Source of the DNA: Escherichia coli
GTDB lineage: Bacteria; Pseudomonadota; Gammaproteobacteria; Enterobacterales; Enterobacteriaceae
Assembly: GCF_001677475.2 (NCBI RefSeq)
Contig: NZ_CP015229.1
Strand: one strand, 5' to 3'
Length of the DNA stretch: 64,000 nucleotides
Shown here: piece after piece, positions 52,275 through 52,294 of the stretch
Position numbering within the stretch: position 1 is the stretch's first letter
How the letters are laid out: every line of letters begins with the position of its first letter
Program-made: the position numbers and the translations under genes
Notes under the pieces: model-generated
What the model was told of the DNA's origin: nothing
What the model saw: only the letters and a program-made list of their open reading frames with translations
The model's database searches: none

Positions 52275-52294
52275 TGTGATATTATAACATTTCA
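52275..52294. promoter_or_regulatory. Zur box in the znuA / znuCB divergent promoter
   Basis: tgtgatattataacatttca, a palindromic match to the Zur operator (GAAATGTTATAATATCACA). Confidence 0.6.

Follow-up and report, generated by a model that had tools for sequence, protein, structure and literature searches.

A known Zur operator between the divergent znuA and znuCB genes of an Escherichia coli znu locus

What kind of site is the inverted repeat that separates the divergently transcribed genes znuA and znuC in this stretch of Escherichia coli DNA, and how would it act on the two transcription units that start on either side of it? The window, by which we mean the whole stretch of 64,000 nucleotides that was analysed, carried a first-pass annotation that placed a Zur operator at 52275-52294, between znuA on the minus strand and znuC on the plus strand, and proposed zinc-responsive repression of both units. 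Our analysis bears out that placement. The 20 bases read exactly TGTGATATTATAACATTTCA and lie inside the gap between the two genes, and we are almost certain that it is the Zur operator of the divergent znuA/znuCB promoter that is already known from experiment and solved by crystallography, present here without change.

The genes on both sides, and the gap that holds the site, are laid out as follows.

51309..52241, minus strand: znuA, 310 aa, periplasmic zinc-binding protein (ORF list and RefSeq mapping; NF007091, 525.8 bits against a cut-off of 268)
52242..52319: znuA-znuC intergenic region, 78 bp, bidirectional promoter
52320..53075, plus strand: znuC, 251 aa, ABC ATPase (ORF list and RefSeq mapping; NF007090, 535.6 bits against a cut-off of 306)
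53072..53857, plus strand: znuB, 261 aa, ABC permease, with a 4-bp overlap with znuC (ORF list and RefSeq mapping; NF007089, 531 bits against a cut-off of 284)

The identities of ZnuA, ZnuC and ZnuB rest on full-length NCBIfam equivalog matches, all well over the curated cut-offs, and the coordinates of znuA and znuC equal the RefSeq annotation carried over from the closest genome (99.7% identical), with the same layout in K-12. Of 5426 complete E. coli genomes, 5425 match the 2.7-kb znu stretch at 95-99.7% identity, and there it is annotated mepM-znuA / znuC-znuB. Within the intergenic region, 52242..52319, a single base differs from K-12 (52254, C here and A in K-12), 16 bp outside the operator, and at least 4182 of 5422 complete E. 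coli genomes carry the whole region with 100% identity. The regulator gene, zur, lies outside the window and, in K-12, ~2.3 Mb from znu; it was found in 5425 of the 5426 complete genomes, and from this presence across the species a zur gene in the source genome can be safely inferred.

The window comes from a sparsely sampled E. coli lineage. Over the znu region (51200..53900) only 298 of 5425 complete genomes reach at least 99% identity, the best relative being the sediment isolate SC418 (99.7%), and over the 22-kb manZ-pphA stretch (11000..33000) only 6 genomes do so.

The operator itself can be described in three frames, one taken from a crystal structure, one from the pattern derived with it and one from comparative genomics.

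52270..52300: full Zur operator, identical to the 31-bp duplex AGAAGTGTGATATTATAACATTTCATGACTA (plus a 2-nt overhang, TG) of PDB 4MTD, which carries two Zur dimers (Table S2, PMC4219657)
52275..52294: structure-based 20-bp Zur box, pseudo-dyad at 52284/52285, 0 mismatches to TGWNAYRWTATAWYRTNWCA on both strands (pattern from PMC4219657)
52271..52293: comparative-genomics 23-bp Zur box, best palindrome axis at 52282, 2 mismatches to the gamma-proteobacterial consensus GAAATGTTATANTATAACATTTC

The agreement with the reference is base for base: all 31 bases of the crystallised duplex are found at 52270..52300, and all 47 bases of the 47-bp EMSA probe of the same study at 52263..52309 (PMC4219657). 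The E. coli K-12 PznuABC operator shares these 31/31 duplex and 47/47 EMSA bases as well as the flanking genes, the 78-bp spacing and the orientation. This K-12 operator was reportedly described by Patzer & Hantke in 1998/2000 and by Outten in 2001.

The motif scans lead to the same site. When the window is searched with TGWNAYRWTATAWYRTNWCA, the next best match already carries 2 mismatches, and GAAATGTTATANTATAACATTTC, allowed up to 3 mismatches, finds 52271..52293 as its sole match in the window and has 0 matches in 100 shuffles. Circularity was avoided by training a leave-one-out Zur matrix on the zinT, ykgM(L31p) and pliG operators only (Table S2, PMC4219657). With this matrix the znu site scores 21.5 bits, more than any other in the window, the next independent site reaching 16.3 bits, and the maxima of shuffled sequences average 13.4 bits with a largest value of 19.15. 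A secondary match in a 5-bp-shifted register (52267..52292) scores 15.6 bits. The match to Zur is far beyond chance.

How are two Zur dimers accommodated on a box of 20 bp? The motif of the structural study can be read onto the sequence as two overlapping elements.

52276..52288: RNNNYxxxRNNNY of the znuA-proximal Zur dimer, G76..T80 and A84..C88 (motif of PMC4219657 read onto the sequence)
52281..52293: RNNNYxxxRNNNY of the znuC-proximal Zur dimer, A81..T85 and A89..C93, at a 5-bp offset (same basis)

Both elements have the central TATA at 52283..52286 in common. The numbering used in the structural study was fixed via its mutagenesis primers, which set base 1 at 52270 and the two-fold axis (15/16) at 52284/52285. 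In this numbering the bases that were mutated (11, 12, 15, 16, 19 and 20; Table S2, PMC4219657) coincide with RNNNY positions: the Y positions of the znuA-proximal element are bases 11 and 19 and its inner R is base 15, and bases 12, 16 and 20 fall in the znuC-proximal element.

The site had also been called a near-perfect palindrome, which overstates its symmetry. In arm-pairing counts made with our own script, 7 of 10 positions pair when the 20-mer is folded about its own centre, 52284/52285, and the best symmetry, 9 of 11 arm pairs, belongs to the frame 52271..52293 with its axis at base 52282. The imperfect arms explain why a repeat search reported only a 9-nt core palindrome. The axis of the 23-mer, 52282, falls at the midpoint of the znuA-proximal dimer site, and the anatomy thereby reconciles the two descriptions of the Zur box: the 23-mer is the strongest palindrome and the 20-mer the two-dimer box. 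We take the operator to span about 52270..52300, with its dyad at 52284/52285. The description of the operator as centred in the promoter is approximately right, as 43 bp separate its dyad from the ATG of znuA and 35 bp from that of znuC.

Does the operator truly lie outside coding sequence? The minus-strand reading frame that holds znuA runs on without a stop through the whole gap as far as a TTG at 52367, and in-frame ATGs occur 5 codons (52256) and 18 codons (52295) upstream of the annotated znuA ATG at 52241. The nearer of the two is created by the base that differs from K-12, C instead of A at 52254. A start at 52295 would place the Zur box inside the gene. We rejected that start: it goes against the RefSeq annotation, the ATG 18 codons upstream is restricted to Escherichia among the 54 species compared, in-frame stops lie upstream of the znuA start in 38 of the 54, and the ZnuA N-terminus MLHK..., similar in appearance to a signal peptide, is kept in the 54 species, as far as Yersinia, Photorhabdus and Morganella. 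The annotated ATG at 52241 is thus supported, and the box stays outside coding sequence after the start has been re-examined. The first-pass annotation had argued in the opposite direction, taking the operator as confirmation of the chosen starts of znuA and znuC. The box alone is no proof of either; for znuA it is the RefSeq annotation, the conserved N-terminus and the upstream stops that fix the ATG. A gene call that simply took the longest reading frame would enclose the Zur box in coding sequence; this long mechanical frame is not the znuA gene.

The arrangement is conserved well beyond Escherichia. A ZnuC scan of species-representative genomes yielded 80 loci, from Escherichia to Gilliamella, with 60-98% protein identity, and znuA lies divergently upstream of znuC in all 80. 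When the whole 3.7-kb locus was scored with the leave-one-out matrix, the best match fell in the scanned znuC-upstream region in 79 of 80 loci, and that region reached 12 bits or more in 76 of 80. In most of these loci 32-40 bp separate the dyad from the znuC ATG downstream of it. The core TGTKATATTATAACAT is found ~34 bp upstream of znuC in 79 of 80 Enterobacterales/Orbales species, and some species prefer the 5-bp-shifted register.

An anchored stack of the window and 79 species gives the same picture at single bases: the columns 52275..52291 (TGTKATATTATAACATT) are near-invariant and most flanking columns stay below 0.8 bit. The anchor, 52280..52289, was chosen for similarity, so that the conservation within it is partly circular; the independent evidence for conservation comes from columns 52275..52279 and 52290..52291. 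Taken with the identity to the characterised operator and with the flanking ZnuA, ZnuC and ZnuB, the persistence of the box across species supports the proposal that both transcription units are repressed in response to zinc.

Where would the two promoters lie with respect to this box? A generic sigma-70 scan for paired -35 and -10 hexamers over 52100..52450 returned no promoter pair. The scan demands a -35 hexamer, which explains its empty result; extended -10 elements are present, and the outcome fits promoters that depend on them. A pattern search places one such element on each strand.

52281..52289, minus strand: TGTTATAAT, putative extended -10 of the znuA promoter, perfect match in the pattern search, inside the Zur box
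52277..52285, plus strand: TGATATTAT, putative extended -10-like element of the znuCB promoter, 1 mismatch to TGNTATAAT in the pattern search, inside the Zur box

The exact promoter elements and start sites are thus predicted, from these extended -10 matches and from the literature. An extended -10 is drawn inside the crystallised DNA (Gilston et al, 2014, PMC4219657), and in Yersinia pestis primer extension and footprinting place the Zur footprint over the -10 of both the znuA and the znuCB promoter (PMC2706843). Y. pestis Zur represses both znuA and znuCB (Li et al, 2009, PMC2706843), and the Y. pestis locus is built like that of E. coli, with divergent genes, a short intergenic region and a Zur box over both -10 elements. 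The Yersinia loci among those compared carry GCGTAATATTATAACATTC at the same distance from znuC as the E. coli box, and the two differ in the outer positions, GTAAT in Yersinia versus GTGAT in E. coli.

Just beside the operator, at a fixed spacing from the Zur box, a second stretch is conserved.

52299..52306: TnCTGCAA block (TTGCAG on the minus strand), conserved at fixed spacing from the Zur box, a candidate promoter or regulatory element

Its TGCAA, 52302..52306, is 85-99% conserved in the 80 aligned sequences, with G, C, A and A at 94-99%. Read on the minus strand, TTGCAG may be the -35 hexamer of PznuA, with a spacer of 14 nt to TATAAT or of 16 nt to TAATAT. That the block is instead a separate, undescribed cis element and not a plain -35 hexamer seems to us improbable. 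As such an element it could correspond to the Y. pestis 'site 2' Zur footprint, to a partial ZntR sequence or docking point for ZntR-assisted removal of Zur, or to a znuC leader element; znuC is without an obvious Shine-Dalgarno sequence, for which a leader element would compensate. The operator itself leaves no room for novelty, and nothing new is to be learned from the present copy. A SoxS marbox in or near the block was considered and rejected, as the sequence, judged by eye, does not suit the marbox spacing and the effect of SoxS is indirect according to the literature.

The block bears on whether Zur acts alone. A second regulator might also act through this or adjacent DNA, for example apo-ZntR through a partial sequence overlapping the Zur box, or a second Zur site, an addition to the Zur model that we consider unlikely while still giving it some weight. 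Partial ZntR recognition sequences overlap Zur boxes, including that of the znuCB/znuA promoter, and ZntR enhances the unbinding of Zur (PMC11618457, 2024); the intergenic region of Y. pestis shows a second footprint, 'site 2', that has no Zur box (PMC2706843) and is not reported in E. coli; and the conserved TnCTGCAA block is immediately next to the operator. Against this, the full ZntR dyad matches poorly (13 of 22 mismatches), ZntR alone does not bind the partial sites (PMC11618457), and the block may be a plain promoter element. Furthermore, the activation of znuACB by SoxS is reported to be indirect, with no gel shift.

Could the symmetry instead be a by-product of two promoters placed back to back, with TATAAT on both strands and no repressor bound? 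When TATAAT-like hexamers on opposite strands overlap, self-complementarity follows of itself, and extended -10 matches on both strands do overlap in 52277..52289. Conservation, however, goes past the -10 hexamers: in the 80 species it extends to the outer TGT and ACA(T) at 52275..52277 and 52288..52291, which are the outer contacts of the Zur motif and which such a by-product leaves unexplained. The same motif is also found at Zur targets that are not divergent (zinT, ykgM and pliG), and binding of Zur to identical DNA is shown by structure and EMSA (PMC4219657). We therefore hold this explanation to be very improbable.

A different member of the Fur family as the cognate protein, Fur itself or another paralogue, is hardly credible. 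The resemblance is a general one: Fur and Zur are related proteins and their boxes are both AT-rich pseudo-palindromes (PMC4219657), and the Fur box GATAATGATAATCATTATC, like the Zur box, is bound by one or more dimers of a winged helix protein of the Fur family and overlaps promoters. But in the intergenic region the Fur consensus fits best away from the operator, at 52251..52269, and even there with 7 of 19 mismatches, so that the znu site itself differs from a Fur box at 7 or more of 19 positions. The central TATA is described as a Zur-specific feature that the Fur box lacks (PMC4219657), and Zur was crystallised on identical DNA; both contradict a Fur box. Lastly, the operator is an inverted repeat, as a cruciform, terminator or RNA hairpin would be, but such a nucleic-acid structure in place of a protein site can be set aside with near certainty, since the single strand folds at just -1.7 kcal/mol (z = 0.32, with 118 of 200 shuffles folding at least as well), the hairpin arms abut without a loop in a stem that is almost all A-T, no terminator-like site was found, and the alignment across species shows invariance, not covariation.

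The site is therefore best read as the Zur operator, and it can be compared with the other Zur operators of E. coli. The zinT, ykgM-rpmJ2 (L31p/L36p) and pliG operators have the GTTAyAwTATAACA core, the central TATA and the overlapping RNNNY elements in common with znu. The znu site differs from them in having G for T at 52278 and a weaker znuC-proximal half, and it is the only one of the four that serves two divergent promoters. Binding of Zur to it is also reported to be 150-300 times weaker than to zinT or L31p, and repression to be ~7-fold at znu versus 560-980-fold at zinT/L31p (PMC4219657 Table 3). Binding of Zur is cooperative, with two dimers and an apparent Kd (Kd-app) of 8.2e-18 M^2, and znuC is repressed 6.6-fold by Zur in vivo (PMC4219657).

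Other Zur-like matches are present in the window, at 12585..12604, 12647..12666, 46176..46195 and 55787..55806. They carry 2-3 mismatches and sit in AT-rich intergenic DNA, in yobD-mntP, in zwf-hexR and upstream of ruvA, and three of them score 14-16 bits on the matrix. We rejected all four (12585, 12647, 46176 and 55787) as Zur sites, as they are without the central TATA and shuffled sequences score in the same range. At zwf-hexR the match forms a clean TGTTAT-N8-ATAACA inverted repeat, which may serve another regulator.

The yobD-mntP intergenic region also holds an IS21-family element at about 12674..15078, with an istA-like reading frame of 499 aa (12766..14265) and an IstB_IS21 reading frame (14262..15017), flanked by the imperfect repeat TCCAACAGTTGTTT/TCTAATAGTTGTTT. 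The insertion is absent from the best-matching complete E. coli genomes, which align with 89% coverage in two pieces. The mntP ATG (15347) follows 268 nt downstream of its right end, and the aptamer of a manganese riboswitch about 40 nt downstream; the element separates mntP from upstream MntR-box-like inverted repeats (12508..12567); because it sits between them, regulation of the manganese exporter may change. The riboswitch, of the yybP-ykoY type and upstream of mntP (15119..15215, plus strand), scores 41.9 bits against an Rfam gathering score of 45; it was missed by the default scan, its score being just under the gathering cut-off, and was found only with an E-value threshold. Rfam further reports an overlapping antisense sRNA pair, SraC/RyeA (plus) and SdsR/RyeB (minus), at 32758..32902, and a leader of the cspA-thermoregulator type at 16810..17270 (minus) over a cold-shock gene annotated cspE in KV7, which corresponds to cspC in K-12.

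How, then, would the operator work in this strain? In a zinc-sufficient cytosol, two dimers of zinc-loaded Zur would bind cooperatively to opposite faces of the DNA. Each would read one of the RNNNYxxxRNNNY elements, 52276..52288 or 52281..52293, with the TATA at 52283..52286 common to both. The bound region, about 52270..52300, would cover the extended -10 of both promoters, TGTTATAAT on the minus strand and TGATATTAT on the plus strand, and because it covers both, RNA polymerase would be kept off the znuA and znuCB promoters at once. When zinc drops, Zur would lose its regulatory zinc and depart, and the high-affinity importer ZnuABC would be expressed. It is likely that zinc-loaded Zur blocks both divergent promoters in this way, and, judged by the identity of the DNA, the same switch presumably operates in the present strain. 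We found no evidence against reading the site as a Zur operator.

In conclusion, the Zur-znuABC system is among the best characterised bacterial metal switches and is relevant to nutritional immunity, and the znu locus in the window is ordinary for E. coli and keeps an intact zinc-responsive switch, so that the site is of value only as an annotation check.
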